The notes: generated by a model from the sequence alone, not told the origin. A stretch of DNA of 64,000 nt from Lewinellaceae bacterium (GCA_020636075.1 JACJYO010000005.1:2926-66925); one strand, 5' to 3'. Counted from the stretch's first letter, positions 2,716 through 56,536 are shown. Made by a program: numbers and translations.

Positions 2716-2783
2716 TTTATGTAAAGCAAGTACTGTATTTCAGATGCCAAATCGGGAGCCTCCCCCCTATTCGGCGGCGTTAT

Positions 2784-6322: not shown

Positions 6323-9300
6323 ATGAAAAAGCACCTGTACCTATTACTATTCCTGCTGACCGTTACCACGCTCTCTGCCCAGGTCGCCATCAACCAGGAT
6401 AACTCCACGCCCGACCCCTCGGCCATGCTCGACGTCAAGAGCAGCGACAAGGGCATGCTCGTACCCCGAATGACGACGGCCCAACGCGACGCTATCGCCA
6501 GCCCGGCCACGGGCCTGCTGGTATTTGATACCGATACCGAATCATTCTGGTACCGGGACAGCGGCAGCTGGGTGCGGCTCATCAGTGGCTGGGGCCTGAC
6601 CGGCAACGCGGGTACGGTGGACGGCACGAATTTTATTGGCACCACCGATGATGTGCCACTGAATTTCCGGGTGAATAATACGCGCGGCTTTCGAATTGAA
6701 CCGTCAGTGAGTAGCCCGAACCTGATCGGCGGGTTTAGCGGCAATACCGTTGCAACAGGGATTTTCGGCGCTACTATTTCAGGCGGCGGAAATGCTGTCT
6801 ATGAGAATCAAATAACCGCCAATTATGGAACGATCGGCGGCGGAGTTAGAAACATTGTAAGCGGTAGCAGTTCGGCTGTCTCTGGTGGATTTTATAACAC
6901 GGCCAGTGGAAATGGTGCAATGATCGGAGGCGGTGAAAATAATACAGCCAGTGGTGATCAGTCTGTTGTTTCCGGTGGTTTAGAAAATACCGCGAGTGGT
7001 CCGCAGTCGACGGTCGTTGGAGGATTTGGCAACCGTGCCGCAGGTTTCGGCAGCGTGGCCACGGGTACGCTTGCCCAAATCAATCATTTCGGGACCTTTC
7101 TCTTCAGTGACGGGAATAGCCCGTATGTGTTCAACTCGGTTTCGAACAATGAATTTGGCGTTCGCGCTACCGGCGGCGTGCGCTTTGTGACGGCCATCGA
7201 CGGCTCCGGCAATCCTACGCAAACGGTGCGTATTGACAATACCGGCACGGTTACCGCTGCTGCCTTTGTGGGCGACGGCTCGGGGCTGACCAATTTACCT
7301 TCCACCGCAGATAACCTGGGTAATCACACCGCCACGTCCGACATCAATCTGAACAACAACTGGCTCACCAACGGCACCAGCAACAGGGGCCTGAGCATCA
7401 ATGCGGACGGTTCCAGTTTTATCGAGACGGAAGGTGCGAAAGTCGGTCTGCAATTGCGATCAGGGGATTCTCCGTATCTGCGTTTAGATCAGGACAATTC
7501 ACAAAACTGGGGCGCCTATACCTGGGACATTGTCGGCAATGAGTCGAACTTCTTTATCCGGGATGTTTCCGGCGGGTCTAAATTGCCATTTAAGATCAAA
7601 CCGGGCTCTTCCAGCGACCGGCTGGTTATCAATGGCACCAATGTTGGCATCGGCAAAGAAATACCGGGCTCTGCCCTGGACGTGGACGGCACCGTTACCG
7701 CCACCGCATTTGTAGGCGATGGCTCGGGATTAACCAATTTGCCAACCAATTCCTTGGCCATCATTGCAGATGCAGACAACGACACTAAAATCCAGGTTGA
7801 AGAAAATGCTGATGAGGATATTATCCGATTTGATTTGGCCGGTACCGAACATTTTAGAATGGATGGCCCACGATTAGAGGTTTTAAATTCAGGTTCATCT
7901 GTTTTCATAGGGCAGGGAGCCGGTGCAAGCAACACCATAGGAGAAAGTATTACTGCTGTTGGAATGAATTCGCTTTATAATCAGACTTCTGGTTATTACA
8001 ATAGTGCGTTAGGAAGAACTTCCCTTTATTATAATACAACTGGAAATAATAATTCGGCCTTCGGTGCATACAGTATGTTCAAAAATACGAGTGGATCCAA
8101 CAATACCGTAATGGGATTGAGCGCTCTTCAAGAAAATCAATTAGGAAACAACAACGTAGCTATTGGATCGTTCGCTGGATCTTTATCTCTAGGTGATGGT
8201 AACATATTCTTGGGATACAATGCCGGCTATAATGAAACTGGCAGCAACAAACTATACATTGATAATTCCAGTACAACTACACCACTCATTTATGGTGATT
8301 TCAGTTCAAATGCACTGACCGTGAATGGGTCATTGCGCGTTAATGACGGTACACAAAGCAGTGGACATGTGCTAACCAGTGACGCTAGCGGCAATGCCAC
8401 TTGGCAACAACCGCTAATGTTTGTAACAGATACATTAACCATTATTGCTGATGCAGACCGCGATACCAAAATTCAGGTAGAAGAAAGTGCCGATGAAGAC
8501 AAAATTCGTTTTGACCTTGCGGGTACAGAGCGGTTTGTGATGGACGGAGCAAGGTTGAGTGTTTTAAACTCAGGAAACTCCGTTTTCATGGGAGAGGGAG
8601 CTGGAGCGAATGACGATCTTACAGACAACAAAAACGTATTCATCGGATTCAACGCAGGAGCCAGCAATACAACTGGAGTCCAGAACAATGCAGTGGGCTA
8701 TGGTGCATTGTCTGCTCAAACTTCAGGCGCTAGCGCCAATAATGCAATTGGTTATCAGGCAATGTTCCGCCATGCAACCGGAAATTTCAACTGCGCTTTT
8801 GGTAACCAAAGTATGTATTTTAACACAACCGGAACCAAAAACACTGCCATTGGAGCAGGTTCTCTTTATCAAAATCAGTCAGGGAGCAATAATGTTGCAG
8901 TAGGACTGAATGCCGGAGGTACCACAACGGGCTCAGGCAATGTGTTTTTAGGCTATACTGCTGGATATTTAGAAAAAGGTTCCAATAAACTTTACATCGA
9001 TAACGGCGGTAGTACATCGCCTCTCATTTATGGTGAATTTGACAATGGTATTTTGAGCTTTAATGCCAATATTGGTATCGGTACCAACAGTCCTGACAGG
9101 CCTTTGACAATCAAGGGTACCGGAACCGAACCTGAATGGTTGAGTTTCAAGGATGATGCAGGTTTCACGCAATGGCACATCAACAACAAACTCGATGGAC
9201 TCAACTTTGCCGAAACGGGCTCAGCTGATGGCAGGTTGTTTCTGGCAGCAGGTGGCAATGTAGGTTTTGGCACTACCAGCCCTACACAGGCCAAAGTGGT

Positions 9301-10066
9301 CATTAATGGAACGGTGTCTAACAATCTCGGGAGCTATGGCTACTTGAACAGCAGTGGGAATACGGGAACCGCTTCAGGTTCGAATCCTTATTCGCTCTAT
9401 GCCAATGAACGGATCGCGGCCAGCGAGTTCAACGCTCATTCTGACAATCGGATCAAAAACATCCGGGGCATCTCCGACGCCGGAGAAGACCTCGCCACCC
9501 TTCTGCAGATCGAAATCACCGACTACACCCTCCGCGACACCATCGCCAAGGGTAGCACTCCGCAGAAAAAGGTCATCGCCCAGCAGGTCGAGCAAGTGTA
9601 CCCGCAAGCCGTAACCGCCAACCTGACCGAGGTCGTACCGGATATATACAAACGTGCCAGCATCAAAGACGGCTGGGTGCAGCTCGCCACGGATCTGAAG
9701 CCCGGCGAACGGGTAAAGATCATCACGGAACAAAGCGCCGAAGTTTACGATGTTACTCAGGTAGAAGAAAGCCGTTTCCGGGTTGCAGAACTCGAAACTC
9801 GTAACTCGAAACTCGAAACTGTCTTCGTCTACGGCCGTGAGGTGAATGATTTCCACACCGTGGATTACGAAGCCATTGCCATGCTCAACGTGAGCGCCAC
9901 GCAGGAACAGCAGCGCATCATCGAGGCGCAGGGAAAGCGTATTGCTGAATTAGAAGCGCAAAACACAGCTCTGAGAAACGAGTTCGAACAGCGTCTGGCA
10001 CGTCTTGAGGCAGTGCTTCAAACCCGGGTTGTAGTAGAAAAATCAGCGGGTTCATCTGAAAAATAA
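6323..10066 (+). CDS. Exported tail-fibre-like protein, S74-type C-terminal chaperone module
   Basis: 1247 aa. Signal peptide ...TLSA|[36 protein letters not shown] N-module. One ~318-aa GxxNxAxG unit. Two diverged ~227-aa halves, each starting IIADAD(N/R)DTKIQVEE and ending GSNKLYIDN...PLIYG(D/E)F. [9 protein letters not shown]...[14 protein letters not shown] (Ser codon 9440). Q/E/A-rich coiled tail. Confidence 0.8.
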   Translation: [1247 protein letters not shown]

Positions 10067-10075
10067 CTTTCAACA

Positions 10076-12274
10076 ATGAACATCATGAAAAATAGCATTG
10101 CCGCGCTTGCCCTGACTTTGCTGTTTGCCAGCCCGGCCTGGGCTCAATTGCAAAACAAATGGGGGAACTTCACCATCAACCCCGGCTCAACAGTCATCGC
10201 TCTCAACGGTGTCATTAGCTCCGAAGGTGGCACGTTCACCGTCGATGGCACGCTTAGCACGCCGGTTGACCTGATCAACACCAACGGCGCTACCCTCCAG
10301 GGTGATGGCCAGTACCACATCGGCGGCAACTGGACCAACGACGCCAACTTCAACGCCGGCGCCTCGACAGTCACCTTCGAAGGTCCGCAAAACAGCACCG
10401 TCGCTTCCGGCGGGGCTGCTTTCAACGACGTTGTGCTGACTAAAAACGATGGGCTCAACCTTTTGCTGGCCGACAATATGGCCATTGGTAACAGCCTCGA
10501 TTTCCAGGCAACAAATAACTACGTAGTACTTGGCAACTTTAATCTACAGGCCGGGGATATGCTCGGCTATGAAGCAAGCCGGCACGTGCGCACCGATGGA
10601 ACAGGATTTCTCGTGCGCACGGTGGCCGGCGCCCCGGTGGTTTTTCCCGTGGGAAACACTACCTACAACCCCGCAACGCTGACCAATGCCGGCACCAGCG
10701 ATCTGTTCCGGGTGCGGGTGGCCGATAATGTTTTGGCCGGCGGCTACTCCGGAAATGCCTACCAAACCAATGCTGTGGACCGCAGCTGGTTTATGGAAGA
10801 AGCAGTCCCCGGTGGCTCCGACCTGAGCCTCGCCCTGCAGTGGAACGGAAACGAAGAACTTACCGGCTTCGACCGCACGATGGCCTATGTGTCAAGCTTT
10901 GACGGCGGCCTCTGGGACAACCAGGCTGCCGGCGCTGCTACCGGCGCCGATCCGTATATCCTTAGCCGGACTGGTATCACGACGCTCACGCCATTTGCGG
11001 TATTGAGCGGCAATTTTCAGCCCGTGGTCAACATCCTGGGGCAGATACGTTGGAAAGGCGATGGCGTGACCGGCGTGAAAGATGCTGCGGTCACCTTCAG
11101 CGGCGACTTCAGTGGCTTGGTCAACTCCGATGCTTCAGGTAACTACAGCACGGCACTCGCCGGCAACGGCAACCTGACGATCACCCCGACGAAAAACGTA
11201 AACCTGCTCAATGGGATCACCGTTGGCGACAAACTCGCCATCCAGCAACACCTCACCGATATCAACCCGATCACAGACCCCTATGTCTGGATCGCTATGG
11301 ATGTTGACCGCGATAACGAGATCTCTACCTTTGATGCCTTACTGATCAGCCAGGCGCTGTTGAACAACCCCCAGACCTTAAATATTTTCAACAAATCCTG
11401 GCGCTTCGTGCCGGCAGCTTACCCCCTGGCCTTGCCGCCCTGGGGTTTCCCGGAGCAGATCGATCTGACGGGAGTAAGCAGCAACCAGAGCGGACAGGAT
11501 TTCTACGGCGTCAAGCTCGGCGATGTAATTGAGGAATTTGCCGATCCGGCCAACTTTGGCGGCAGCGGCAGTAGCATGGCGCCGCTGGTTTGGCGGGTGC
11601 AAGACCGTATGCTGGAGGCCGGACAGGACATTCAGGTAACCTTTGCAGCGGATTTCCTGGAAAACATCGCGGCATTCCAGTTTGGTCTGCGTTTTGACAC
11701 ACAATACCTGGAACTGGAGGATGTGGAACAACTGGCCGCCTTGCCGCTCGGGGATGACCACTTCGGCTTATTCGAGGCACATTTGGGCGAGTTTCGGGCA
11801 GCATGGTCACACCATGAGGGTTTTGAACTGCCACATGGTTCGGAAGCTTTTCACCTGCACTTCAAGGTGTTGGAATCGGGTGTAAACCTGAGTTCGATAC
11901 TCGGCATGGATGAATCCTTATTACAAGGGCTGGTGTACAACAATCAGTTAGAGCACAATGAGGTGCAATTGCATTTCAGTCCGGCCACGGGTACGCACGA
12001 TGCACAGGCTGATGTGCTCTTATTCGACAACTTTCCCAATCCATTTGTAAATACAACCAACATTAGTTTTAGCCTGCCGGAATCCTGTGCGGCGCAATTG
12101 CGAGTACTGGATGAAAGCGGCCATGAGCTGTTCCGGGTAAACCGGGACTACCCCGCCGGCAATAATATGGAGCAACTGAATTTGGGCGATTTGAGCGCTG
12201 CCGGGATGTTGGTTTGTGAACTGGCGACACCTTTTGGCGTATTGACGAAAAAAATGGTTCGGGTAGGCGGGTAA
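10076..12274 (+). CDS. T9SS-sorted partner protein (family N-domain, dockerin-like + cohesin-like modules, T9SS CTD)
   Basis: 732 aa, starting 9 nt after the fibre stop. Signal peptide ...SPAWA|QLQNKW. GATLQGDGQYHIGGNWTNDANFNAG. DVDRDNEISTFDALLISQALL. QDIQVTFAADFLENIAAFQFGLRFDTQYLELEDVE. CTD FPNPFVNTTNISFSLPESCAAQLRVLDESGHELF. Confidence 0.8.
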   Translation: MNIMKNSIAALALTLLFASPAWAQLQNKWGNFTINPGSTVIALNGVISSEGGTFTVDGTLSTPVDLINTNGATLQGDGQYHIGGNWTNDANFNAGASTVTFEGPQNSTVASGGAAFNDVVLTKNDGLNLLLADNMAIGNSLDFQATNNYVVLGNFNLQAGDMLGYEASRHVRTDGTGFLVRTVAGAPVVFPVGNTTYNPATLTNAGTSDLFRVRVADNVLAGGYSGNAYQTNAVDRSWFMEEAVPGGSDLSLALQWNGNEELTGFDRTMAYVSSFDGGLWDNQAAGAATGADPYILSRTGITTLTPFAVLSGNFQPVVNILGQIRWKGDGVTGVKDAAVTFSGDFSGLVNSDASGNYSTALAGNGNLTITPTKNVNLLNGITVGDKLAIQQHLTDINPITDPYVWIAMDVDRDNEISTFDALLISQALLNNPQTLNIFNKSWRFVPAAYPLALPPWGFPEQIDLTGVSSNQSGQDFYGVKLGDVIEEFADPANFGGSGSSMAPLVWRVQDRMLEAGQDIQVTFAADFLENIAAFQFGLRFDTQYLELEDVEQLAALPLGDDHFGLFEAHLGEFRAAWSHHEGFELPHGSEAFHLHFKVLESGVNLSSILGMDESLLQGLVYNNQLEHNEVQLHFSPATGTHDAQADVLLFDNFPNPFVNTTNISFSLPESCAAQLRVLDESGHELFRVNRDYPAGNNMEQLNLGDLSAAGMLVCELATPFGVLTKKMVRVGG

Positions 12275-13147: not shown

Positions 13148-15853
13148 ATGCGCTTTTTTGAAACAATCGTACCGGAGATAAAGGCAGTGCTTTTGCCTGC
13201 TGCTTTACTTATCTGTATTCACCTCCAACTTCACGGACAGAGTGGCGTCAGCATCAACAACAGCGGAGCGCTGCCCGATGCCGGGGCGATCCTCGATCTC
13301 GAATCTACAGACAAAGGGTTGTTGATTCCCCGCATGAAAACTGCCCAGCGCCAGTTGATCAGCGGCGGTGCGCCTGCCACCGGCATGATGGTGTATGATA
13401 CGGACACCAATTCCTTCTGGTATTTCAACGGAACCGGCTGGATAAACATGGCCAGTCTCACACTGGAAGATGCCGACCAGGATACCAAAATACAGGTGGA
13501 AAAATCCCCCGATGAAGACATCATCCGCTTTGATGTGGCAGGCGTGGAAGTGATGCGCCACGACGGGAAAACACTCCATGCTGCCGCACCGGGCTTTAGT
13601 TTGTTTATTGGTTCGGATGCCGGAACAAACGACGATGGTGTAGGCGACGGAGTGGAAAACGAAAACACATTTATTGGCGTAGGAACAGGCTACTCCAACA
13701 CTGTTGGGATACATAACACTTACCTGGGCACTAATGCTGGAGCGTATAATATTGTCGGCAGTGGCAATACCATGATTGGGCATAACGCAGGGTTCAATAC
13801 AACTACAGGCGGGAACACTTTCCTGGGCTCCGGCGCCGGCTATAACAATACCGCCGGTAGCAATAATTTCTTTTCCGGTTCCGCTGCCGGCTATAACAAT
13901 ACCGCCGCTTCAGGTAATCATTTTGCCGGCTATCGGGCGGGATTTTCCAATACCACAGGAGTTGAAAACCAATTTATTGGCTTTGATGCGGGTTTTGCCA
14001 ACACGACCGGCGGTACGAACCTGTTTGTGGGCTTTGAGGCAGGCAAAAGCAACACGACCGGCGGCACAAACCTGTTTATCGGGCACAGAGCCGGCCACAG
14101 CAATATTTCGGATTTCCGAAACATGTTTATCGGTCATGAATCGGGTGAAGCCAATAACGGCGGATACTCCAATCAATTTATGGGTTATCAGGCCGGACAA
14201 TCCAACGTTAGCGGTTGGGAGGGCCTTTTTATCGGCTATAAGTCAGGTCAAAACAACACGACCGGCCATCTCAATCATTTTGTCGGTTATTATGCCGGCC
14301 AAAGCAATACGGCCGGGTATGCCAATTATTTTTCCGGCCACCGGGCAGGCCGTTTGAATACTACAGGTACCTGCAACCACTTCGCCGGCTGGCTGGCCGG
14401 TGATGCCAACACGACTGCTTCGTACAATCACTTTGTGGGTTATGCTTCCGGAAATTCAAACACGACCGGCGAGCGGAACTATTTTTCAGGGTATTACACA
14501 GGTGATGAAAATACAACGGGCAGCAACAACCACTTTGACGGGCATCAGGCAGGAAAAAACAATACCACCGGCAGCAATAACCAATTTAGCGGCTACAAAG
14601 CCGGGATCAGCAATAACGGCGCGGACAATAATTTTTTCACCGGCTACGAAGCCGGGCAAGCGAATACCAATGGTCATGACAACCACTTTTCAGGTTTTCA
14701 GTCGGGATATACCAACATAGGCGGCCATTACAATTATTTTTCCGGTTACCAGGCGGGCTATTCCAACACGGGCAGTTACAATCATTTTTCCGGGTATAAA
14801 GCCGGCTACGAAAACACGACCGGCACAGCCAATTATAGCTCGGGCCAGGGGGCAGGCCGAAACAACCAGACGGGCAGTAGCAACGTCTGCGTCGGCTACC
14901 AGGCCGGTCTGAACAATCTCAGCAGCAACAATATTTTTATCGGACGGAGCGCAGGTCAGTCCTTTGACAGCGGCACTGAAAACACCATGATCGGAACGAG
15001 AGCCGGCGAATCCTTTTCGGGCACCGGGGACAACTGTACATTTTTGGGAGCGTATGCCGGGCAAACCACTTCCGGTAGCGACAACACACTCCTTGGTAAT
15101 CATGCCGGAAAGGCCGTTTCTAATTCCGGCAACACAATCGTCGGAAGCCAGGCGGGCGCCGCAGGTGTTTTTTCCGGAGCGAATAATACTATAATGGGTA
15201 AAAGCGCGGCATCCGGATTGACCAGTGGAGCACAAAACGTGATTATTGGAGCCAGCACTGGATCAAGTGTCGGTGGCGGCAGCTCGAATACCTTGGTCGG
15301 ATTCACTGCACGTTCACTTTTAAATTTGAACAATTGCATCGCCATCGGTTACGACACCTATGTCACTGCCGCCAGTACCGCTATGATTGGGAAAAATATT
15401 ACCAAGGTGGGTTTTGGTAAAGAAGCCGGCGTTGGGGAGGCCATGGCCTTCTATGTCAATGGCGCCTATCTATCCTCCGGAGGAACCTGGACCAATGCAT
15501 CCGACCGCAACGTGAAAGAAAATATTACATCGGTCAACAGGGCAGAAGTGCTCGACAAAATAATGCAACTCCCGATCACGCAATGGAATTACATCAACGA
15601 GGACGACCGGGTGAAGCATATCGGTCCTATGGCACAGGATTTTTATGCGGCTTTCGGACTGGGCAGGGACGAAAAATCCATCTCCACTATCGACCCCGCA
15701 GGTGTCGCACTGGTAGCCATACAGGAGCTGAACAAAAAACAACAGGAACTCCAGCAAAAAACGGAGGAAATCAATCAGTTGAAATCAATGCTGGAAAGCT
15801 TGCAAACGGAGGTGTCGGCGCTTAAGGTTCGCATGGACAATGCGGAGAAATAA
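13148..15853 (+). CDS. Exported tail-fibre-like protein with ~28 short Gly/Asn repeats and a classical S74 chaperone module
   Basis: 901 aa. Diverged N-module [59 protein letters not shown]. Long run of N.F.G..AG..NTTG repeats. [10 protein letters not shown]...[16 protein letters not shown]...[13 protein letters not shown] (Ser codon 15500). Confidence 0.85.
   Translation: [901 protein letters not shown]
13664..14963 (+). repeat. Degenerate ~45-bp (15-aa) coding repeat N-x-F-x-G-x-x-A-G-x-x-N-T-T-G, about 28 units
   Basis: Read in the translation, e.g. [15 protein letters not shown] / [17 protein letters not shown] / [16 protein letters not shown]. Confidence 0.7.
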
Positions 15854-15903: not shown

Positions 15904-18065
15904 ATGAAAAAATACCTGCTTACCTGCGCTGTTTGTGTATGCCTGGTGCATGTTGCCCTGGCTCAGTTTACAAACAAGGGCGTCAAAGTCAATATGGCCC
16001 CCGGCTCTACCATCAAGGCGCTCGACGGCGTCGTCAATACTTCCGGTGGCACCCTCAATGTCGACGGTACGTTGAACACCCCCGTCGATCTGAGCAATAC
16101 TTCCGGAGCCACCCTCCAGGGCGACGGTCAGTACTACATCGGTGGCGACTGGACCAACAGCGCCACCTTCAATGCCGGCACCGCTACCATCACGTTCATC
16201 GGCGACAAAAATAGTAATGTCACATCCGGCGGCGGCGCCTTCTACAATCTGAACCTGAATAAAACCGGTGCCAACATCTTGCTCGCCGATAATATGGCCA
16301 TCTCAAACAGCCTCGATTTCCAGGCTGCCGATAACTACGTTGTTCTGGGCGACTACAACCTGCAGGCTGCCGACATCACCGGTTACGACGCCGCACGCCA
16401 CGTCCGCACAACCGGCGCAGGCTTTCTCGTGCGTACGGTGAATGGTGCGCCAGTAATATTTCCCGTAGGCAATACAAACTACAACCCAGCCACCCTGACC
16501 AATGCCGGCACCAGCGACATGTACCGCGTACGTGTTGCCGGCAATGTGTTGAATAATGGCTATTCGGGCACAGCCTTTACAAGCAATGCAGTGGACCGTA
16601 CGTGGTTTGTCGAGGAAGCGGCGCCGGGCGGCTCTGATCTGTCGCTACAGCTCCAATGGAACGGTAGCGAAGAATTACCCGGCTTCGACCGCGCGATGTC
16701 CTACCTGTCGCATTTCGAGGGCGGCATTTGGGACAATCAGGCAGCCGGAGCTGCCGGCGGCGCCGACCCCTATACCCTGAGTCGCACAGGCGTCACCACA
16801 CTCTCGCCCTTTGCCATACTGAGTGACAACTTCCAACCCACGGTGGATATCCTTGGCCGGATCATTTGGAAAGGCGACGGCATGAGCGGTGTGAAAGACG
16901 CTACCGTCACGGCCAGCGGCGACCTGAATGGCCTTGCCGCCACTGATGTCAATGGCAACTACAGTCTCACCCTGGCTGGCAACGGCAATGTATCCCTGGT
17001 GCCCGCCAAAAATAGCAACGTGCTCAATGGTCTCAATGTGGGCGATGCCCTGGCCATCCAGCAGCATTTGGTAGGTATTAACCTGATCAGCGACCCGTAT
17101 GCCTGGATCGCCATGGACGTCAATCGCAGTAATAGTATTTCCACCTTCGACGCCGTCCTGATCCGGCAGGCCCTGCTTGGTCACCCGCTGGTGATGAATT
17201 ATTTCAATAAATCCTGGCGCTTCGTGCCGAAGGACTTTCCGCTGGCCCTACCGCCCTGGGGCTTCCCCGAACAGATCGACCTGACGGGGGTGGTCAGTAA
17301 TCAAACCGATCAGGATTTCTATGGCGTGAAGATCGGCGACGTGATCGCCACCTATGCCAATCCGGCCAATTTCGGGGCGGGTATGGCGCCTTTAGTCTTG
17401 CACGTGCAGGATCAAAACCTGGAAGCCGGGCAAGACCTGGAGGTAAGTTTTTCAGCCGACTACCTGCAAGATGTGGCAGCCTGGCAATTTGGCCTGCAGT
17501 TCAATCCGCAATACCTCGACCTGCAGGCCGTAGAACCACTTACCGCACTGCCACTCAACGCAGACAACTTCAGTCTTTCGGACGATGCGATTCGGGCAGT
17601 CTGGACATTTCCGGCGGCGCCGAACTGGAGGAAGGCTCGACTTTGTTCCGCCTGCGGTTTAAAGCACTGGCCTCTGGTGTGCGGCTGAGCGATGTGCTGA
17701 GCCTGGAGGAGACAATCCTGCCTGGTATAGCCTTCAATAGTGCCATGGATAATGCGCCGGTGGGGCTGCGCTACAACACTGTTACGACGGCGACCGGCGC
17801 GCCGGCAGGAACTGTACAACTGTTTGAAATCGGACCCAATCCGTTCGTTCAAACTACCAACGTGCGCTTCAGCCTGCCGGAGGCCTGTCAGGCACAGCTG
17901 CGTGTGCTGGATGCCAGCGGTCGTGAATTGTGGCAGTTGGAAAAGAACTACTCGTCCGGTTATCAGCAGGAGACGATCCGGCTGGAGGGCGTCACCGGGG
18001 CTTTGGTGTGTGAAATGACTACACCCTGGGGCGTGCAAAGTGTGCAACTGGTGGCAGTGGAGTAA
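15904..18065 (+). pseudogene. Partner-family gene split by a 1-nt deletion near 17611
   Basis: ORFs 15865-17688 and 17643-18065 together are collinear with the intact paralogue 27934-30108. At 17605-17625 the sequence is acatttccggcggcgcc, versus acatttcccggcggctcc at 29636. Signal peptide MKKYLLTCAVCVCLVHVALA|Q (ATG 15904). T9SS CTD in the second ORF. Confidence 0.75.
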
Positions 18066-18737: not shown

Positions 18738-21700
18738 ATGAAATATTTTCTTTCCCTTCTGAGCATGCTGCTTCTGTGTTTGATATCGGCAGAGCTGGCC
18801 GCACAAAACGAACTGCAAGTCAAAGCGCCCAATGGTAATGTCCTCCTGGAGGTACGCGAGGAAGGGGTGATCGTAAAAAAAGTTACAACAGCCGAACGCA
18901 CCGGCTTTTCCCTGACCACCACAGACAAAGGGCTTTTGGTGTATGATGCCGACCTGAGCGCCTTCTTCACCTGGAACGGTACCCAATGGAAACAGATCGA
19001 CGGACCGGATATGGCTGATGCCGACAAAGACACTAAAATACAGGTAGAGAAAAACACGGACGAGGACATGATCCGTTTTGATGCCGCAGGGGACGAACAA
19101 CTATTGGTTGCTCCCGGCCAGGTATCTGTACACAGTGATTTCAAGGCCGGTCGAACATACACCGGTCCGGTAACACTGAACGCAAGCATTTACGGTACCG
19201 GGTTTGTAGTCTCCAGTTCAACCGAGCCGGACTGGCAGTCTTTCACGGCCACGGCTGCCGGCAAAGTGCATTCCTTGCAATTGACCTTTGGAGGACCCAG
19301 CCAGACCTATACCATCAGCCTGTATGAAGGTGAGGGTGTTGGCGGCAACCTGTTAACCACCAAGTCCTTTACTTCTCCGGGCGGAAATACCAGTATGCAG
19401 ATATCCATATCGGACGAAATCATTCTTGCTCCGGGGGCAAAATATACGGTGGGTTTCAGCAGCAGGCAGGACATCGGATACTATTTCAATGTCTCTCCGG
19501 ATGGACGTGCCGGCTCTAATCCCAATGCCGACTATTTTGTGAGGGTATATACCTATGGTGAAAAGTACGGTGTCAATGTTGTCGACGGAACACTCAACAT
19601 CAACGAAGCCTATACTTTACCTACTACCGCCGGCGCAAACGGGCAAACCTTGACAAGCAACGGCAGCGGCAATGTATCGTGGACGACCCCAACCGACAAC
19701 GACCAGCAAAACCTGACGCTGAACGGCAATAACCTGTCGATCTCCAACGGCAACAGCGTCAGCCTGCCCGTTAATAATGATAATGACCCCACCAATGAGA
19801 TCCAGGTCATTTCCTATGACGATGTTACCAAAATTCTGACCCTCTCCAACGGCGGAACCGTAGATCTGTCCGGCCTGGACCCAGCCACGGCACAAGCGGC
19901 CATCGATGCCCACATCGCAGCTGACCTGGATACAGACCCCACCAACGAGATCCAGGCCATTTCGTATAATGCCGTTACCAAAATTCTGACCCTCTCCAAC
20001 GGCGGAACTGTAGATCTGTCCGGCCTGGACCCAGCCGCGACACAAGCGGCCATCGATGCCCACATTGATGCTGATGGTGATCTGGACCCCACCAACGAGA
20101 TCCAGGCCATTTCCTATGACGCCGGTACCAAAATTCTGACCCTCTCCAACGGCGGAACTGTTGACCTGTCCGATCTGGACCCCGCTACGGCACAAGCGGC
20201 CATCGATGCCCACATCGCAGCCGATCTGGATACAGACCCTACCAATGAGATCGAACTGCCCGCGGGAGGCAGCAACGGACAAGTACTCACAACCAATGGA
20301 AGTAATGGAGTGTCCTGGGCTAACATTCCAGCAACAAGCATTCTTAGGGATGCCGACAACGACACCAAAATACAAGTAGAAAAAAATCCGGATGAGGATA
20401 TTATTCGGTTTCAAGTGGCTGGAACGGAAGCGGCGAATATAATCAGAAACACCATTCAAGGGACCATACAAACTGGAAACGATTCATACGGTCCTGTTGA
20501 TCCATTTCAATCAGGGTGGCAGTCTTTTACGGCTACTGCCGATGCAGCAATTAAATCCATTGAGATTCGCTGTAATTTTGATAACCTGCCTGGAGGATTT
20601 ACAACCAAAAGTATTCGCATTTATGAAGGAGAAGGAACCGGTGGCAGTTTATTGGCGTCGCTTGGTACTTTTACCTTAGCCAATGGATGGAACCAAATTA
20701 CAGTGTCGGCCCCCATAAATATGAGCAGCGGAGCAAAATATACCATTTGGTTTAGCAACATCAGTGGTATATGTTATGGCCAATCGGGCTACGCTGGTGG
20801 GAGCAGTTCGTATGTCCAAGGCTATGATTGGTCCACACGGGTGAATTGGGCTTACTACCAAGGCCAATTCACCACATCCTCATTTGCCATTGAAAATGCG
20901 TATGCGCTTCCTACAACGGATGGCGCTAACGGACAAGTACTCACAACCGATGGCAGTGGCACCACGTCCTGGTATACGCCAATCGGCTCTCAAGACCTCA
21001 GCCTTTCCGGAAATACGCTATCGATCTCCAACGGCAACAGCGTCCTCCTGCCCATTAGTAATGATGATGACCCCACCAACGAGATCGAACTGCCCGCGGG
21101 AGGCAGCAACGGACAAGTACTCACAACCGATGGCAATAATGGAGTTTCCTGGGCAGACCTTTCAATTGCAAACACCCTTACAGATGCCGACAACGATACC
21201 AAAATTCAAGTCGAAAAAAATCCGGATGAGGATATTATTCGGTTTGAAGTGGCTGGAACGGACGCAGCGCAAATAAGCACCGTCTTTCTATTTGATGGAA
21301 CCATACAAACAGCAACCGGTGGAGGAACTTATTGTTGTGGTACGACACCATCATGGCAGTCTTTTACGGCTACTGTCGATGGGCTAATCCAATCCATTGA
21401 GATTAGATACAACATATACTCGGAATTCCCAACCAAAAACTTTGCTATTTATGAAGGTGAAGGAACCGGTGGTGCTTTATTAGCGTCGCTTGGTAGTCAT
21501 ACGTTAAGCCATGGATGGAATCAGATTACACTCCCCACCCCTGTCGATTTAAGCAGCGGAGCAAAATATACCATTTGGTTCAGTACCGACGCTGGTATAT
21601 ATTATTCTACCGATAATCCTTATGGTGGTGGGCGCAGTAGTTTAAACGCAATCGCTGATTTTTCCACCCGGGTAAACTTGGGTGTCTACAAGGGACAATT

Positions 21701-22118
21701 AACCACTTCCTCATTGGTTATTGAAAATGCGTACGCGCTTCCTACCACAGATGGCGCCAACGGGCAGGTACTCACAACGAATGGCAGTGGAGCTGTGTCC
21801 TGGGCGGATCATCCCTGGGCTGATTCCGGTGGTAATACATACAGAATCAATGGCAATGTAGGCATCGGCACAACTACACCAACTACCAAACTTGATGTGA
21901 ACGGCACCACAAAAACTTCGGCACTGCAAGTTGGGGATAACGGTACGGTTGTTTCACAAATGCGAACCGGTAGTTTTACCGTTGGTCCCCATCATTTTAA
22001 TGGTACCCCCCTTGTCTATCTTGTACAAGGCATTTCCTTCGGAGGAACCTTTAGTGCCCCACCCAAGGTGTTCTGCCAACTCCGGGGTGAAACAGGCCAA
22101 CTCAATTTAGACACATAG
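18738..22118 (+). CDS. Exported fibre-family protein, variant type: three ~220-aa WQSFTAT modules, 50-aa repeats, no S74/G2 module
   Basis: Likely start MKYFLSLLSMLLLCLISAELAA|Q (ATG 18738). Retains DKGLLVYDADLSAFFTWNGTQW. DAD(K/N)DTKIQVEKN.DED.IRF occurs three times. NGNVGIGTTTPTTKLDVNG near the end. The frame stops at 22116-22118, but the coding signal continues in the +1 frame. Confidence 0.75.
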   Translation: MKYFLSLLSMLLLCLISAELAAQNELQVKAPNGNVLLEVREEGVIVKKVTTAERTGFSLTTTDKGLLVYDADLSAFFTWNGTQWKQIDGPDMADADKDTKIQVEKNTDEDMIRFDAAGDEQLLVAPGQVSVHSDFKAGRTYTGPVTLNASIYGTGFVVSSSTEPDWQSFTATAAGKVHSLQLTFGGPSQTYTISLYEGEGVGGNLLTTKSFTSPGGNTSMQISISDEIILAPGAKYTVGFSSRQDIGYYFNVSPDGRAGSNPNADYFVRVYTYGEKYGVNVVDGTLNINEAYTLPTTAGANGQTLTSNGSGNVSWTTPTDNDQQNLTLNGNNLSISNGNSVSLPVNNDNDPTNEIQVISYDDVTKILTLSNGGTVDLSGLDPATAQAAIDAHIAADLDTDPTNEIQAISYNAVTKILTLSNGGTVDLSGLDPAATQAAIDAHIDADGDLDPTNEIQAISYDAGTKILTLSNGGTVDLSDLDPATAQAAIDAHIAADLDTDPTNEIELPAGGSNGQVLTTNGSNGVSWANIPATSILRDADNDTKIQVEKNPDEDIIRFQVAGTEAANIIRNTIQGTIQTGNDSYGPVDPFQSGWQSFTATADAAIKSIEIRCNFDNLPGGFTTKSIRIYEGEGTGGSLLASLGTFTLANGWNQITVSAPINMSSGAKYTIWFSNISGICYGQSGYAGGSSSYVQGYDWSTRVNWAYYQGQFTTSSFAIENAYALPTTDGANGQVLTTDGSGTTSWYTPIGSQDLSLSGNTLSISNGNSVLLPISNDDDPTNEIELPAGGSNGQVLTTDGNNGVSWADLSIANTLTDADNDTKIQVEKNPDEDIIRFEVAGTDAAQISTVFLFDGTIQTATGGGTYCCGTTPSWQSFTATVDGLIQSIEIRYNIYSEFPTKNFAIYEGEGTGGALLASLGSHTLSHGWNQITLPTPVDLSSGAKYTIWFSTDAGIYYSTDNPYGGGRSSLNAIADFSTRVNLGVYKGQLTTSSLVIENAYALPTTDGANGQVLTTNGSGAVSWADHPWADSGGNTYRINGNVGIGTTTPTTKLDVNGTTKTSALQVGDNGTVVSQMRTGSFTVGPHHFNGTPLVYLVQGISFGGTFSAPPKVFCQLRGETGQLNLDT
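19785..20250 (+). repeat. Three tandem 150-bp (50-aa) coding repeats plus a partial copy
   Basis: gaccccaccaa(t/c)gaga recurs at 19785, 19935, 20085 and 20235. The unit is DPTNEIQAISYDAVTKILTLSNGGTVDLSGLDPATAQAAIDAHIAADLDT. Confidence 0.85.
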
Positions 22119-22502: not shown

Positions 22503-25500
22503 ATGCGAGGTTTAAAAAATAAAATAGCCGTTTTGGTGCTTACCTGCTTTTTGGGTAGCCCAACCTGGGCCCAATTGTACAATAAGGGAACCTACGTCAA
22601 AGTGGCACCTGGTATCACCGTCAATGCCCTCAATGGTGTTATCAACTCCGACGGCGGCACCATCACCGTTGATGGCACAATAAACACGCCCGCCGACCTT
22701 ACCAACGAGACCGGCGCCCTCCTGCAGGGCAACGGCCAGTACCAGGTGAGCGGCGATTGGAACGACAGCGCCAACTTCGACGCCGGCACCTCCACTGTTT
22801 TGCTGGAAGGCAATACGCCGGGCGCCCTGAACTCAGGCGGTGGCCCTTTCTACAACCTGATCCTGCATCACGATGTAACCCTCAATAACTCCATTCAAAT
22901 CGAGCAGGCGCTGAGCCTGATCAATGCCGATTTCGAGCTGAACGGCTCGGTCATTACGCTGAGCCCCGGGGCAACCATGAGTGAACAGCCTGATAATACC
23001 GTCAAAGGCCCACTTGGCCACATCATCACGACCCGAAACCTCAATGCCCCCGGCAACCAAAATGTAGGCGGAATGGGCTTTGAGTTGACTACCGGCGCCG
23101 ACCTCGGCTCCACCGAGATCATCCGGGCCCATGCACCACAGACCATCTTGGGCAACGCGGGCATCCTCCGGTACTTCGATGTGACGCCTTCAAACAATAG
23201 TGGCCTGAATGCCGGCATCGTCTTCCATTACGACGATTCCGAACTTAACGGAAACAACGAATCGGAACTGGACCTCTACCGAAGCGATGATGGGGGGAAC
23301 TCCTGGATCTATGTGGCCGGCAACCGGGACCCGGACGCCAATACCTATACGGCTACGGGCATCGAGTCCTTCTCACGCTGGACACTTAGCAGTGGATGTC
23401 CGGTATCCACCCAGGCTGCCTGTCAGGATATAACGGTCTACCTGGATGCGACCGGACAAGCCTCCATTACTGCAGCGGAAATAGACGGTGGTAGTCTGGG
23501 CAAATGTGGCATCCAAACCACCAGTTCGAGTATTTCCACCTTTGATTGCAGCAAGCTCGGTCGCAACAATGTCACCCTGACCGTGTCCGACCTTGTCGGG
23601 GGAAGCAGCAGCTGTACCGCTGTGGTCACGATAGAGGACAATATCGCTCCGACGATCACCTGTCCGGCCAATATCACGACCGACAACGATATGGGCGCTT
23701 GCGAAGCACTCGTCACAGGCCTGGGCTATACCTCCGCCGCGGACAACTGCTCGTTGGCTGTGAATTGGACACTGGAAAAAACACCTGCTGAAACCGGCAT
23801 TACAGAAACGGTTTCCGGCTCCAACGCCCTCGGATCTTCCAACATCCCGGTCGGTACTGCCACACTAACCTACACCGTTGTGGATGCCGGTAACAACTCG
23901 GCAAACTGCTCCATCAGCATCACGGTCAACGACAACACCCCGCCCGATGCCGTGTGTCAGACCCATACCGTCCAACTCGACATCCATGGCGATGCCACCA
24001 TCGCCGCCGCCAATGTGGACGGGGGTAGCAGCGACAATTGCGGCATCCAGGAAATTACGGTTGCGCCCGACACCTTCGATGAGAGCAATCTCGGGTCGAA
24101 CAACGTAACCCTCACGGTGACGGACGTCCATGGACACATGTCGTCCTGCAGTACCACGGTGACCGTGACCGGACGCGCTACAGCGCTGAGCTATACCGGC
24201 GCTACAGATGAACAATACTCCGACCAGGCAAGCCTCAGCGCCACCCTGCTCGATGATCTGACCGGAGACCCCATCCAGGGTCGCGAGCTCCTTTTCACCA
24301 TCGGCAGCCAAACCGCCTCGGCCACGACGGATGCCAACGGTCTGGCAAGCGCCACCATCGTACTCAACCAGGCGCCGACAGGCGTCAACGGCGCCTCCTA
24401 CACCGTCGATGTCGACTTCATACCGGCCGCAGGCGACTGGTTCCTCGGTTCGTTCCAAAGCCAGGATTTCGGGATCATCCCCGAAGATCCCATCGTTACC
24501 TACACCGGTGTGGTATATGTTTCCACGGGTGGGGCGAACAACAGCGAGGCCACCCTCACCTTGACGGCCACCATTCAGGATGACCCCAACGACGGCTATC
24601 CTGGCGACGTGTCCAATGCTGTGGTTCAATTCTACAACTCCGAGACCGGCGATACCATTGGCGATCCGCTCAACGTGATGCTTGTTAACCCGAACGACCC
24701 CTCCACCGGCACGGTCCTCCAAAACTGGACGGTCGACATCCAAAATAAGGACGTGGAGTCTTATGAGATCGGCATTAAGGTCTTGAGCTATTACCACCGC
24801 GAATTTGAAGCCGATGAGATCATCACCGTTTCCAGGCCGCTCAACGACTACGTCAAGGGAGGGGGTAACTTCTATCTGGAAAATTCCGAAGGGGTATATG
24901 CCGGCGACGACAACAGCGCGCTTCGGTTCAGCATCAACGGCAAGTTTACCCCCAACGGCAACAACCCCAAGGGTAAGGTTCACTTCCTGGTCGACCGCCT
25001 GGAGTCGGACGGCATCGTCCATACCTACCGCTTCAAGAGCAACAACATCCTGAGCGTAGGCATCAATTCAAGCACCAATGATGGTTGGGTAACCGGCAAG
25101 TGCAGCGTTCAGGACGTGACCGACCCGGGCAATCCCATCTCCCTGGGTGGCAACAGGACCTTCCAGGTAGAAGTGCAGGACAATGGTCAACCGGGTGCCC
25201 TCGATTCGATCGGCATCGCCGTCTACCACCAGAATGGTTCCCTCCTCTTCTCCAGCAAGTGGTCGGGCGTGCAGACCTTGCGCGACACCCTGGACAAAGG
25301 TGATATCGAGGTGTCCGCCGGCGCCCAGGCGATGAACGCGCCGCCTCAAAACGGCCCGGCAGGACTCAGCATCAAGGCGGATAAAATGACTGTTGGCGAC
25401 ATCCATCTCTTCCCCAACCCGGCCGTTGATCAGGTGAAACTGACCTTTGAACTGGACGCGGACATGGACATACGGTTAGAAATCGTCTCCACCAACGGCC

Positions 25501-25646
25501 AAATCCTTCGCAGCCAGTCAATAGCTTCGCAAAGGGGGGCAAACACCCACCGGATCGATCTGGAGGGACTGCCCGCCGGCACCTATTGGGTACGCGTCTC
25601 CGGAAAGGATATCCGATTGGCAAAACCATTAGTGATCGCAAATTGA
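22503..25646 (+). CDS. T9SS-sorted partner-family protein, HYR/Ig-like variant
   Basis: Likely start MRGLKNKIAVLVLTCFLGSPTWA|Q. Family N-domain (TVDGTINTPADLTNETGALLQGNGQYQVSGDWNDSANFDAG). CQDITVYLDATGQASITAAEIDGGS and APTITCPANITTDNDMGACEALV (HYR-like). CTD LFPNPAVDQVKLTFEL...GTYWVRVSG. Confidence 0.8.
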   Translation: MRGLKNKIAVLVLTCFLGSPTWAQLYNKGTYVKVAPGITVNALNGVINSDGGTITVDGTINTPADLTNETGALLQGNGQYQVSGDWNDSANFDAGTSTVLLEGNTPGALNSGGGPFYNLILHHDVTLNNSIQIEQALSLINADFELNGSVITLSPGATMSEQPDNTVKGPLGHIITTRNLNAPGNQNVGGMGFELTTGADLGSTEIIRAHAPQTILGNAGILRYFDVTPSNNSGLNAGIVFHYDDSELNGNNESELDLYRSDDGGNSWIYVAGNRDPDANTYTATGIESFSRWTLSSGCPVSTQAACQDITVYLDATGQASITAAEIDGGSLGKCGIQTTSSSISTFDCSKLGRNNVTLTVSDLVGGSSSCTAVVTIEDNIAPTITCPANITTDNDMGACEALVTGLGYTSAADNCSLAVNWTLEKTPAETGITETVSGSNALGSSNIPVGTATLTYTVVDAGNNSANCSISITVNDNTPPDAVCQTHTVQLDIHGDATIAAANVDGGSSDNCGIQEITVAPDTFDESNLGSNNVTLTVTDVHGHMSSCSTTVTVTGRATALSYTGATDEQYSDQASLSATLLDDLTGDPIQGRELLFTIGSQTASATTDANGLASATIVLNQAPTGVNGASYTVDVDFIPAAGDWFLGSFQSQDFGIIPEDPIVTYTGVVYVSTGGANNSEATLTLTATIQDDPNDGYPGDVSNAVVQFYNSETGDTIGDPLNVMLVNPNDPSTGTVLQNWTVDIQNKDVESYEIGIKVLSYYHREFEADEIITVSRPLNDYVKGGGNFYLENSEGVYAGDDNSALRFSINGKFTPNGNNPKGKVHFLVDRLESDGIVHTYRFKSNNILSVGINSSTNDGWVTGKCSVQDVTDPGNPISLGGNRTFQVEVQDNGQPGALDSIGIAVYHQNGSLLFSSKWSGVQTLRDTLDKGDIEVSAGAQAMNAPPQNGPAGLSIKADKMTVGDIHLFPNPAVDQVKLTFELDADMDIRLEIVSTNGQILRSQSIASQRGANTHRIDLEGLPAGTYWVRVSGKDIRLAKPLVIAN

Positions 25647-26071: not shown

Positions 26072-27922
26072 ATGAAACATTTTCTTTGCCTTCTGAGCAT
26101 GCTGCTTTGCCTGCTGTTTTTTTCAGCGGGTCTTTTTGCCCAGGTAGCCATAAACCAGGACAACTCCAACCCCAACCCCTCCGCCATGCTCGACGTCAAG
26201 AGCAGCAACAAAGGCATGCTCGTACCCCGAATGACCAGCACGCAACGTATGTCTATTGCCAGCCCTGCCACCGGCCTGTTGGTATTTGACGAAACGACCG
26301 GCGGCTTTTGGTTTTACAACGGTACCGTTTGGCAAGACTTGTCAGCCGATGCGGATACAGACCCAGCCAACGAGTTGCAAAACATCTCTGGCGTACTGGC
26401 TCAGGGCAACGACGCCGGTGGTACAGACATCACGAATCTGGGGGCTGTATCAGCGACTTCCTTTGTCGGCGACGGTTCGGGGTTAACGGGTACCCCCGAC
26501 AACCAAAACCTCAGTCTTAGCGGTACTACACTGAGCATCGAGGATGGCAACAGCGTGAATTTGGCCACCCTTCCCGGCGACAACCTCGGCGACCACACGG
26601 CTGCGCAGAATCTTAAACTCAACAGCAACTGGCTCTCCGGTGATGGTGATGACGAAGGTGTTTTTGTGGATTCAAATGGCAATGTCGGTATTGGTACTGC
26701 CACGCCCAAGGAAGCCCTGCACGTCAACGGCGACTATTACGGCAAAGGACACATCTGGCTGCATGCCTATGAAGGCGACGGCAATTCGGGTACTGCCTAC
26801 GTGCAGGCGCGCGACGATTCGGGCACTTCCAGCATCGGCATGCAATTGCGCACCCAAAATGGCGGGAGCATTGTAAATGCGCTTGCCATCGCGCCTTCCG
26901 GCACTGTTAGTACTTCCGGCAATGTCGGCATCGGCACCACCACGCCGGACGCAAGACTGGATGTTGGCGGCGGCAACATTGCGCTTAACGGTGGCTGGCT
27001 TTCCCGTGATGGTGACAACGAAGGTGTATTTGTCGCCTCCGATGGCAATGTCGGCATCGGCGCCAGTAACCCAATAAACAGGTTGGCAGTAACCGAAAAT
27101 GTATCAGGAACCAATCTTGGCCCTTCCAATTATGTTGCGCAACTTCGGAATACAAATACAAATGGAACCGTGCAACAAGGCGTCATGGTGCTTGTATTTG
27201 ATGCGAACCTTTCCGGTGAACCGGGCAATGGCAACTGGATTCAGTTTGTACAGAATAATATCGTCTCCGGCAAAATCGAAAACAACAGCAACGGCAATGC
27301 CCAGTACGCAACCACCGGCGCGGATTACGCGGAATCGTTGGAACGCCTGGATCACGACGAAGAGATTGCCGACGGCGAAGTGGTGGGCGTGTTCGGCGGC
27401 AAGATCAGCAAGCGCACCGAAGGCGCCGATTGGGTAATGGCCGTGAGCGACAATGCAGCGGTGCTCGGCAATGCAATTTATGACGGCACGGAAGAAAATT
27501 ACGAAATCGTCAGCTTCATCGGCCAGGTGGGCGTGCAGGTGCGCGGCACAGTGAAAAAAGGCGATTACATCGTCGCATCCGGACTGAATGACGGTACTGC
27601 CATCGCGGTGTCGCCGCAAGCCATCACACCGGAACAGGGCAACCGCATCGTCGGCCGCGCCTGGGAATCGAAGGCGAGCGAAGCCGTCGCGCGCGTCAAC
27701 ACCGTGGTGGGTCTGCCGGAAGCAGCCTCCACTACAATGGCTTTGTCCAAACGCGTTGAAGCGCAAAAAGAAGCGATCATTACGTTGAAAGCGCAGGTTG
27801 CTGCGCTTCAAGCCCAAAATGTTACGCTAACCAGCCAGAACAGCGCTTTTGAACAACGCTTTGAACAACTTGAAGCAGCTTTTTACCAACGACAAACCGA
27901 ACGTTCGAGCAGCCGCAAATAA
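26072..27922 (+). CDS. Exported tail-fibre-like protein with the alternative (Peptidase_G2-like) C-terminal module
   Basis: ATG 26072, MKHFLCLLSMLLCLLFFSAGLFA|QVAINQDNSNPNPSAMLDVKSSNKGMLVPRMTSTQR. LSLSGTTLSIEDGNSVNL. GADYAESLERLDHDEEIADGEVVGVFGGKISKR...AVLGN...FIGQVGVQVRGTVKKGDYIVASG. Coiled tail. Confidence 0.8.
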   Translation: MKHFLCLLSMLLCLLFFSAGLFAQVAINQDNSNPNPSAMLDVKSSNKGMLVPRMTSTQRMSIASPATGLLVFDETTGGFWFYNGTVWQDLSADADTDPANELQNISGVLAQGNDAGGTDITNLGAVSATSFVGDGSGLTGTPDNQNLSLSGTTLSIEDGNSVNLATLPGDNLGDHTAAQNLKLNSNWLSGDGDDEGVFVDSNGNVGIGTATPKEALHVNGDYYGKGHIWLHAYEGDGNSGTAYVQARDDSGTSSIGMQLRTQNGGSIVNALAIAPSGTVSTSGNVGIGTTTPDARLDVGGGNIALNGGWLSRDGDNEGVFVASDGNVGIGASNPINRLAVTENVSGTNLGPSNYVAQLRNTNTNGTVQQGVMVLVFDANLSGEPGNGNWIQFVQNNIVSGKIENNSNGNAQYATTGADYAESLERLDHDEEIADGEVVGVFGGKISKRTEGADWVMAVSDNAAVLGNAIYDGTEENYEIVSFIGQVGVQVRGTVKKGDYIVASGLNDGTAIAVSPQAITPEQGNRIVGRAWESKASEAVARVNTVVGLPEAASTTMALSKRVEAQKEAIITLKAQVAALQAQNVTLTSQNSAFEQRFEQLEAAFYQRQTERSSSRK

Positions 27923-56410: not shown

Positions 56411-56536
56411 GTGATTAGCAATTTTTCCACGCCATTGGGTTCAAATACGAATTCTACCCAACATTAGTCCTCAACCGCAGACTCGCACTACCCGGATAAA
56501 ACCCTATTCCGTAATCGAAGGTGCGTTGCATTTTTT

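Follow-up and report, generated by a model that had tools for sequence, protein, structure and literature searches.

Cassettes pairing tail-fibre-like proteins with type IX secretion cargo in a Lewinellaceae bacterium and other Bacteroidota

Substrates of the T9SS (type IX secretion system) are defined by a C-terminal domain (CTD) on the cargo itself. In the closest described Bacteroidota surface appendages linked to this system, SprB with SprF and the Aureispira grappling hook GhpA with the PorP/PorE-like GhpB/C, the filament carries the CTD and a cognate adjacent accessory gene encodes an outer-membrane PorP/SprF barrel; GhpA comes from Saprospiraceae, the same family-level group as the organism studied here (bioRxiv 10.1101/2024.01.29.577165). 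Two further kinds of fibre bear on the comparison, namely phage tail fibres or tailspikes that end in an intramolecular chaperone (S74 in the K1F endosialidase and the T5 L-shaped fibre, G2 in neck appendages) and trimeric autotransporter adhesins such as YadA, UspA1 and Ata. Here we analyse a 64-kb stretch of DNA from a Lewinellaceae bacterium (GCA_020636075.1 JACJYO010000005.1:2926-66925; hereafter the window, with positions counted from its start), in which six cassettes join genes for tail-fibre-like proteins (fibres) to a gene for a T9SS-type cargo protein (the partner). By contrast with SprB/SprF and GhpA, the filament is here CTD-less and it is a soluble neighbour that carries the CTD. 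Specifically, the type-B scheme, in which the filament bears a TIGR04131-type CTD and a PorP/SprF gene lies beside it, was not found: the partner CTD is of type A, and no PorP/SprF-like open reading frame (ORF) occurs in the window. An initial annotation, made from the sequence alone, had considered the pairing undescribed, and no published account of it, or of ‘PTL’, the module that the fibres share, was found in the literature searched.

Fibre and partner genes of the six cassettes

All ORFs of at least 150 amino acids (aa) in the window, which has a GC content of ~0.53, were listed and translated. Ten of the genes encode fibres, six encode partners and a few are of other kinds, with the fibre gene or genes and the partner gene of each of the six cassettes on the same strand. 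The coordinates reported by the initial annotation were reproduced, as were all six gaps between fibre stop and partner start (9, 50, 384, 11, 121 and 127 nucleotides (nt)), which are measured from internal ATG starts judged plausible (15904, 18738, 22503, 26072, 38297, 48304 and 63633); longer ORF starts for the same genes lie at 18678 (fibre 18738), 22449 (partner 22503) and 26063 (fibre 26072). In the following list, PTL denotes the N-terminal module of the fibres (PTL_trimer) and PAR the shared unit of the partners.

Fibre 1: 6323..10066, plus strand; 1247 aa; signal peptide, PTL_trimer N-module, UspA1/YadA-like beta-roll repeats, Peptidase_S74 chaperone
Partner 1: 10076..12274, plus strand; 732 aa; signal peptide, PAR at ~residues 21-320, immunoglobulin (Ig)-like domain, dockerin-like helices, predicted cohesin fold, T9SS type-A CTD
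Fibre 2: 13148..15853, plus strand; 901 aa; divergent PTL N-module, Peptidase_S74
Partner 2: 15904..18062, plus strand; PAR, dockerin and cohesin region to ~17613, then a frameshift, with the T9SS CTD in another frame to 18062
Fibre 3: 18738..22118, plus strand; most divergent PTL N-module, DUF4082, without S74 or G2 chaperone
Partner 3: 22503..25646, plus strand; ~1047 aa; divergent PAR, HYR domains, Por_Secre_tail
Fibre 4: 26072..27922, plus strand; PTL N-module, Peptidase_G2 autoproteolytic module
Partner 4: 27934..30108, plus strand; 724 aa; PAR, dockerin, cohesin-like region, CTD
Fibre 5: 34672..38175, plus strand; 1167 aa; PTL N-module, nine YadA_head repeats, Peptidase_S74
Partner 5: 38297..40154, plus strand; signal peptide, frameshift near 38430, short-type PAR, HYR, CTD (FlgD_ig / Por_Secre_tail)
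Partner 6: 46128..48304, minus strand; PAR from 48304 to ~47186, frameshift, then dockerin, cohesin-like region and CTD (47180-46128)
Fibre 6e: 48432..50465, minus strand; 677 aa; PTL N-module, S74; last gene of a five-gene array
Fibre 6d: 50477..55282, minus strand; 1601 aa; PTL N-module, triplicated ~318-aa shaft unit, S74
Fibre 6c: 55440..59011, minus strand; split into 56537-59011 (N-module and shaft) and 55440-56186 (S74 end)
Fibre 6b: 59023..61200, minus strand; 725 aa; PTL N-module, Peptidase_G2
Fibre 6a: 61216..63633, minus strand; PTL N-module, S74; first gene of the array

All ten fibres share an N-module of ~70 aa (QV.INQDNS.PDPSAMLDVKS.DKGMLVPRMT..QR) that directly follows the signal peptide, which in fibres and partners alike was read directly off the alignment as a hydrophobic leader ending in A-x-A/Q. 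Homologues 80-91% identical to the N-module of the window carry a precomputed match to PF26696 (PTL_trimer), a name that also appears in a table of gene contexts, and it is through these homologues, rather than by direct scoring, that we assign the N-module to this family. Pfam places Peptidase_S74 in seven fibre ORFs (6323, 13148, 34672, 48432, 50477, 55440 and 61216) and Peptidase_G2 in two (26063 and 59023), and fibre 18738 has a DUF4082 match and neither chaperone. Six fibres (6323, 34672, 48432, 50477, 55440 and 61216) retain SD.R.K, the motif at which S74 modules are cleaved; in the remaining S74 fibre, 13148, this pattern was not matched. Nine YadA_head repeats were found by Pfam in fibre 34672, and fibre shafts and C-termini match tail-fibre/tailspike PHROGs. 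The architecture first proposed for these proteins, with a signal peptide and N-module in all ten, adhesin or tail-fibre repeats and a chaperone in nine, thus holds. Because a PTL_trimer N-terminus is combined with a C-terminus that is usually a self-cleaving S74 or G2 module, the fibres are presumed to be trimeric.

No T9SS CTD was found in any of the ten fibres, either with Pfam or with a CTD hidden Markov model (HMM) built here, which matches only the six partners and ORF 3575-5101; nor does Pfam detect a YadA anchor or other barrel domain in any fibre, the only YadA-type matches being head repeats. The possibility that the fibres are lipoproteins was considered and rejected: only some leaders contain cysteines, and these are buried in the hydrophobic stretch and differ from one paralogue to another. 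On all three counts (CTD, barrel anchor and lipobox) the fibres are therefore as the initial annotation had described them. Trimeric autotransporters resemble the fibres in their YadA_head and UspA1-like beta-roll repeats and in the presumed trimeric adhesive form, but the fibres have a self-cleaving chaperone at the C-terminus in place of the YadA beta-barrel anchor and, for that reason, type Vc secretion is excluded.

Fibres of one array have only the N-module in common, and a single partner accompanies an array of up to five of them. In fibre 50477-55282 (minus strand) the ~318-aa shaft unit occurs at residues 94-412, 412-730 and 730-1073, and its 77-82% identity between copies and to neighbouring fibres indicates recent recombination or duplication inside the array. 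The fibre family as a whole is very large, with at least 4,971 matches scored for one fibre, and across it the PTL module is joined to S74, G2, H_lectin, DUF1566 or YadA-head C-terminal parts; the combination of a signal peptide with an N-terminal PTL module is found almost exclusively in Bacteroidota, the phylum of the T9SS. In fibres and partners alike, the predicted cleavage position of signal peptidase almost always coincides with, or adjoins, a glutamine (…A-Q-V…, …A-W-A-Q-L…), which fits the Bacteroidota ‘Q-rule’ of N-terminal pyroglutamate.

Turning to the partners, 10076 is 99% identical to a protein of a Lewinellaceae metagenome-assembled genome. Pfam and NCBIfam models (Por_Secre_tail/PF18962 and TIGR04183) match 10076, 22449, 38472 and 46128, and the CTD HMM built here adds 27934 as well as 17301-18062, the latter read in a shifted frame. 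The initial annotation had all six partners ending in a T9SS sorting domain; a CTD was found for each of the six, although for 15904, 38297 and 48304 only if frameshifts are read through, and on these matches all six classify as T9SS type-A cargo. It had also divided the partners into two domains. The sharing pattern on which this division was based stands, in that an N-domain is common to five partners, 38297 aligns from ~position 67 and has the FPVGN..YNP motif, and 22503 aligns throughout but without that motif. The division itself does not, as both parts behave in alignments as one homologous unit of ~300 aa, which we name PAR and which also covers the divergent 22503 and 38297 (shorter N-terminal part).

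An AlphaFold model of partner 10076 (pLDDT 84) predicts PAR (~residues 25-310) to be a short-strand beta-solenoid followed by a beta-sandwich and, beyond it, an Ig-like domain, dockerin-like helices, a cohesin fold and the CTD. The PAR fold is read from the secondary structure of this full model, a PAR-only model (pLDDT 53) being unusable. Foldseek confirmed the cohesin fold of the partner model (TMt 0.65-0.73 to cellulosomal cohesins), Dockerin_1 scores 17.8-25.4 bits against a Pfam cutoff of 22.9, and partners 1, 2, 4 and 6 carry the predicted cohesin fold together with a dockerin EF-hand pair. In this they resemble non-cellulosomal cohesin-dockerin proteins, with Dockerin_1 matches near the cutoff; unlike those systems, they hold both modules in one T9SS cargo, the modules are absent from the minimal partners of other lineages (see below) and no glycoside hydrolases lie nearby. 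PAR has no sequence match in Pfam, NCBIfam, PHROG or PDB, profile searches with the PTL module and PAR against PDB sequences gave no match, and Foldseek gave no informative match for PAR in PDB or BFVD, matches of the full model being dominated by the cohesin and Ig domains.

The PAR profile matches 5,611 representative clusters (at 50% identity) with E<=1e-3, and 3,172 with E<=1e-10, among 1.84 billion proteins. The 149 best PAR representatives include 91 small proteins (median 465 aa), of which 85 have PAR beginning in the first 60 residues and 66 have a CTD; the other 58 are giant multi-domain proteins with an internal or repeated PAR. As many as 34-40 copies of the N-terminal beta-solenoid part occur in giant proteins such as P0324 (6573 aa), P0423 (6191 aa), P0349 and P0363.

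Conservation of the fibre/partner adjacency

The arrangement seen in the window is conserved across Bacteroidota, in Saprospirales, Chitinophagales and Bacteroidales-labelled contigs. A first genome scan used dockerin motifs as patterns, and most of its 74 loci are dockerin proteins and not partners. Where a full PAR gene is accompanied by enough upstream DNA, all eight genome loci have one to three same-strand fibre genes directly upstream. Four distant PAR homologues were chosen blind to their neighbours, and PTL_trimer fibres lie directly upstream of three of them (L241, L243 and L244) and not of the fourth (L242), so that fibres stand directly upstream in 11 of 12 partner-selected loci overall.

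Individual cases illustrate the range of partners. In a Chitinophagales metagenome-assembled genome (MAG), two PTL/H_lectin fibres precede a 1272-aa PAR protein with Por_Secre_tail; on a Bacteroidales-labelled contig (L077), three fibres precede a 561-aa PAR protein that shows 35% identity with partner 48304 across 324 aa and ends in dockerin-like repeats with no detectable CTD; and in a Saprospiraceae MAG, two fibres precede a 1474-aa CTD protein with an internal PAR. The adjacency was seen in Lewinellaceae as well as Saprospiraceae MAGs and on many soil and wastewater metagenome contigs.

Selection by the fibre gave a lower frequency. The metagenome sample comprised 80 contigs, on which 26 arrays had at least 2.5 kb on both sides; a PAR gene lies within 3.5 kb on the same strand in 11 of the 26 (42%), mostly directly downstream and sometimes directly upstream, four arrays have another CTD protein, and 11 have neither. 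In this sample the partner takes its minimal form, a signal peptide, PAR and a type-A CTD in 370-510 aa, with Por_Secre_tail matched in 10 of 10 fibre-selected partners. Because the adjacency is conserved in other genomes, chance is excluded as its cause; the genetic association of fibre and partner is, on these comparisons, solid and broad, and the minimal conserved cassette therefore consists of one or more fibres and a protein made of signal peptide, PAR and type-A CTD.

Two sets of contigs deserve separate mention. L011, L021 and L050 (JAKLJF01, ‘Thermoanaerobaculia bacterium MAG.385’) are labelled Acidobacteriota and carry a fibre and PAR cassette together with dockerin-type T9SS proteins; they are probably mis-binned Saprospiraceae, horizontal transfer being the alternative. 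L241 bears two cassettes of fibre and CTD protein on one contig (4783-9386 and 13921-17113), each with a TPR kinase before it and an oppositely oriented AraC-type regulator after it, the second partner being a 77-aa CTD fragment.

Relation to phage proteins

The PTL core (~60 aa) occurs in at least 452 IMG/VR stretches, and 80 viral loci (L161-L240) were fetched from these matches for comparison. Of the 108 PTL domain matches in them, 53 stop just a few residues short of the end of the protein, many others belong to internal repeats and no more than 12 lie at the N-terminus. The viral core often stands one or two residues before the stop or forms four or five internal repeats in giant fibres (for example, L190 6617-12484), and a protein of Leptolyngbya phage Lbo-JY46 (L080 5044-6186) has the module at its C-terminus. 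Since PTL is mostly C-terminal or internal in phages and N-terminal in the cellular fibres, the latter employ a module of phage fibres with its position inverted, immediately after a signal peptide. The 80 viral loci carrying PTL yielded no PAR, which on that evidence is the cell-specific component of the cassette.

The fibres resemble phage tail fibres and tailspikes in their S74 or G2 module, in their tail-fibre PHROG matches and in the swapping of tips on a constant proximal module. They differ from them in their Sec signal peptides, the lack of virion genes, the N-terminal position of the conserved module and the T9SS cargo gene next door. In their working they are like phage receptor-binding proteins and the heads of trimeric autotransporters, yet they lack what defines either family, there being no virion and no barrel anchor. 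It would be most surprising if the cassettes were a decayed prophage or a depot of receptor-binding proteins for a tailocin or contractile injection system, holding spare fibres for a particle encoded elsewhere. Such an origin would account for shafts and C-termini that match phage tail-fibre PHROGs and for a PTL module that is common in IMG/VR contigs. However, when the ORF inventory of the 64-kb window was scanned with Pfam and PHROG, genes for capsid, terminase, sheath, tube, baseplate and integrase were all missing, which bears out the initial annotation, and no phage structural genes were found in eight other annotated contexts, where the chromosomal neighbours include two-component systems, TonB receptors and glycosyltransferases. 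Moreover, every fibre has a Sec signal peptide, which does not agree with the assembly of particles in the cytoplasm, and their PTL module is inverted in position relative to phages.

Phage biology offers a second comparison, in which the partner would be a fibre accessory (an assembly chaperone, tip cap or beta-helix depolymerase), analogous to a phage post-fibre gene, with the fibre held by something else. The N-terminal half of PAR is predicted to be a short-strand beta-solenoid, a fold class typical of tailspike enzymes. The order of a fibre gene and then a small gene also mirrors phage fibre/chaperone pairs, for instance those with transient chaperone caps, in which an accessory protein is likewise associated with a fibre (PMC10579305). 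We nevertheless consider an accessory role improbable: most fibres already contain an intramolecular S74 or G2 chaperone, one partner serves unrelated tips (S74, G2, H_lectin and DUF4082), PAR is missing from the 80 phage loci, no catalytic family match was found for the partners and, unlike phage assembly or cap proteins, to which they show no sequence or PHROG similarity, the partners have a signal peptide and a T9SS CTD.

A possible carrier role for the partner and its setting

The conserved adjacency, the restriction of the CTD to the partner and the presence of one partner per array of fibres that share only their N-module together support a reading in which the partner supplies the T9SS signal in trans. 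The arrangement suggests a partner that serves as carrier or surface anchor for the fibres, which makes the docking or export role originally proposed for it plausible. The explanation we favour, tentatively and at somewhat less than an even chance, is that the cassettes are cellular, non-phage surface-fibre systems in which PAR binds PTL, the partner CTD provides the T9SS signal in trans and the partner then holds the fibre. By sequence, each fibre is a Sec-exported protein without an outer-membrane sorting signal of its own, whose modules trimerise and, usually, self-cleave in their known families, and the last (occasionally the first) gene of the array encodes a protein of signal peptide, PAR and type-A T9SS CTD. 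Under this model, PAR would bind the N-terminal PTL knob, the only part common to the fibres of an array, in the periplasm or at the translocon, the partner CTD would supply the sorting signal and, after CTD processing, the partner would hold the fibres on the surface with their variable tips outward, one partner serving one to five different fibres, much as a phage baseplate adaptor bears interchangeable receptor-binding proteins. In this Lewinellaceae lineage, dockerin and cohesin could in addition link partners to one another or to other surface proteins. The T9SS passes folded proteins through the 70 Å SprA pore and exports very long filaments (PMC9251779; bioRxiv 10.1101/2024.01.29.577165). 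The more general proposition, that the T9SS exports and displays CTD-less proteins, with trimeric fibres derived from phage receptor-binding proteins riding on, and staying attached to, a PAR carrier, we regard as doubtful at present.

Several observations weigh against this model. We know of no precedent for in-trans use of a T9SS signal, and PTL, being mostly C-terminal or internal in phage fibres, may be a mere trimerisation unit and not a docking module. No PTL-PAR fusion occurs among the 149 best PAR representatives, whole PAR units are found inside large T9SS cargos without a fibre neighbour (L039, L068 and L079), and two partner homologues, the 561-aa protein of L077 and P0069, have no Pfam CTD match. 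Dockerin and cohesin, absent from minimal partners, are a lineage-specific addition, which weakens the case further. In more than half of the arrays selected by the fibre, the surrounding 3.5 kb contains no PAR gene, and the co-divergence of paralogous cassettes in the window (mirror-tree) is driven by one outlier pair, with r 0.75 when it is included and -0.19 when it is not. In addition, three of the six partners are not intact frames, being interrupted at ~17613 (15904), near 38430, among A5 runs (38297), and at ~47180-47186 (48304). One fibre is likewise split, by frame changes within 56186-56540 (56537-59011 and 55440-56186), and the four frame changes could be assembly errors, pseudogenes or phase variation.

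Much of this would be expected if the fibre and the PAR/T9SS protein were co-regulated but physically independent surface or periplasmic proteins of the same process (adhesion, biofilm formation or prey capture), the fibre leaving by vesicles, lysis or an unknown exporter, or staying periplasmic, and the partner being an adhesin or enzyme in its own right. The many arrays without an adjacent PAR gene, the giant adhesin-like PAR proteins without fibres and the lack of fine co-divergence between paralogous cassettes all fit such independence, as do the binding modules that partners possess themselves (HYR, dockerin and cohesin) and the dedicated regulators that flank PAR-containing and PAR-less loci alike. 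Even so, we think it rather unlikely, as it sits poorly with an adjacency of 11 in 12 partner-selected loci at gaps of 9-50 nt and with a minimal partner that consists only of PAR and CTD, which fits an adaptor better than an independent effector, and it gives no account of the route by which fibres lacking a sorting signal would get to the surface.

The remaining genes of the window include regulators next to the cassettes and a few genes of other kinds:

1714-2715: FecR-type anti-sigma factor
2784-3371: extracytoplasmic function (ECF) sigma factor
3575-5101: further T9SS cargo of 508 aa with a Cys/Pro-rich N-terminal region, transcribed divergently from the ECF sigma/FecR pair
5315-6028: OmpR-type response regulator
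12461-13051: small membrane protein
30364..34464, plus strand: hybrid two-component regulator (Reg_prop, Y_Y_Y, HisKA, HATPase, receiver and AraC helix-turn-helix (HTH) domains), directly upstream of fibre 5
40232-41773: flavin adenine dinucleotide (FAD) oxidase (FAD_binding_4/ALO), between partner 5 and the hybrid kinase
41940..45893, minus strand: hybrid sensor kinase (Reg_prop, Y_Y_Y, HisKA, HATPase, receiver and Hpt), downstream of the minus-strand cassette

The products of 30364..34464 and 41940..45893 are candidate regulators of the cassettes, and regulators of the former type are recurrent neighbours of fibre arrays elsewhere. Signalling genes almost always flank fibre loci, with PAR present or not; the types seen are Reg_prop/Y_Y_Y hybrid kinases that have an AraC output, LytS-type kinases accompanied by LytTR, TPR kinases accompanied by LuxR, TPR-adenylate cyclases and TPR-SpoIIE phosphatases (examples in L077 2893-6066, L078 6488-9047, L079 1-4953, L097, L138 and L241). 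Because signalling genes flank the fibre loci in this way, cassette expression appears to be conditional, and the favoured model would assign this control to the adjacent, dedicated two-component regulators. The ECF sigma/FecR pair and the 508-aa cargo (1714-5101) lie outside any fibre cassette. GC content falls to 0.38 over 40001-42000, where the FAD oxidase gene lies, against ~0.53 elsewhere, and this region may be a recent acquisition. No T9SS machinery genes (por/spr/gld) were found within the window, and a promoter/terminator scan, whose coverage excludes Bacteroidota promoters, gave counts close to the shuffled expectation.

If fibre and partner turned out to be only co-regulated, the cassettes would still provide a useful annotation, without a new mechanism. 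If the carrier model is true, fibres tied to the T9SS only through the carrier encoded next to them would broaden what is known of how its substrates are recognised, and the model would account for thousands of orphan Bacteroidota “tail fiber domain-containing proteins”. The newly defined PAR, a large family of more than 5,600 clusters without a Pfam entry, now has a testable function. The biological role of the cassettes is likely to be adhesion to particles, filaments or prey, and they are abundant in activated-sludge and soil Saprospiraceae/Lewinellaceae, whose ecology centres on attachment to just such targets. On the model favoured here, Bacteroidota would gain regulated, interchangeable surface fibres mounted on a cellular substitute for the phage baseplate adaptor.

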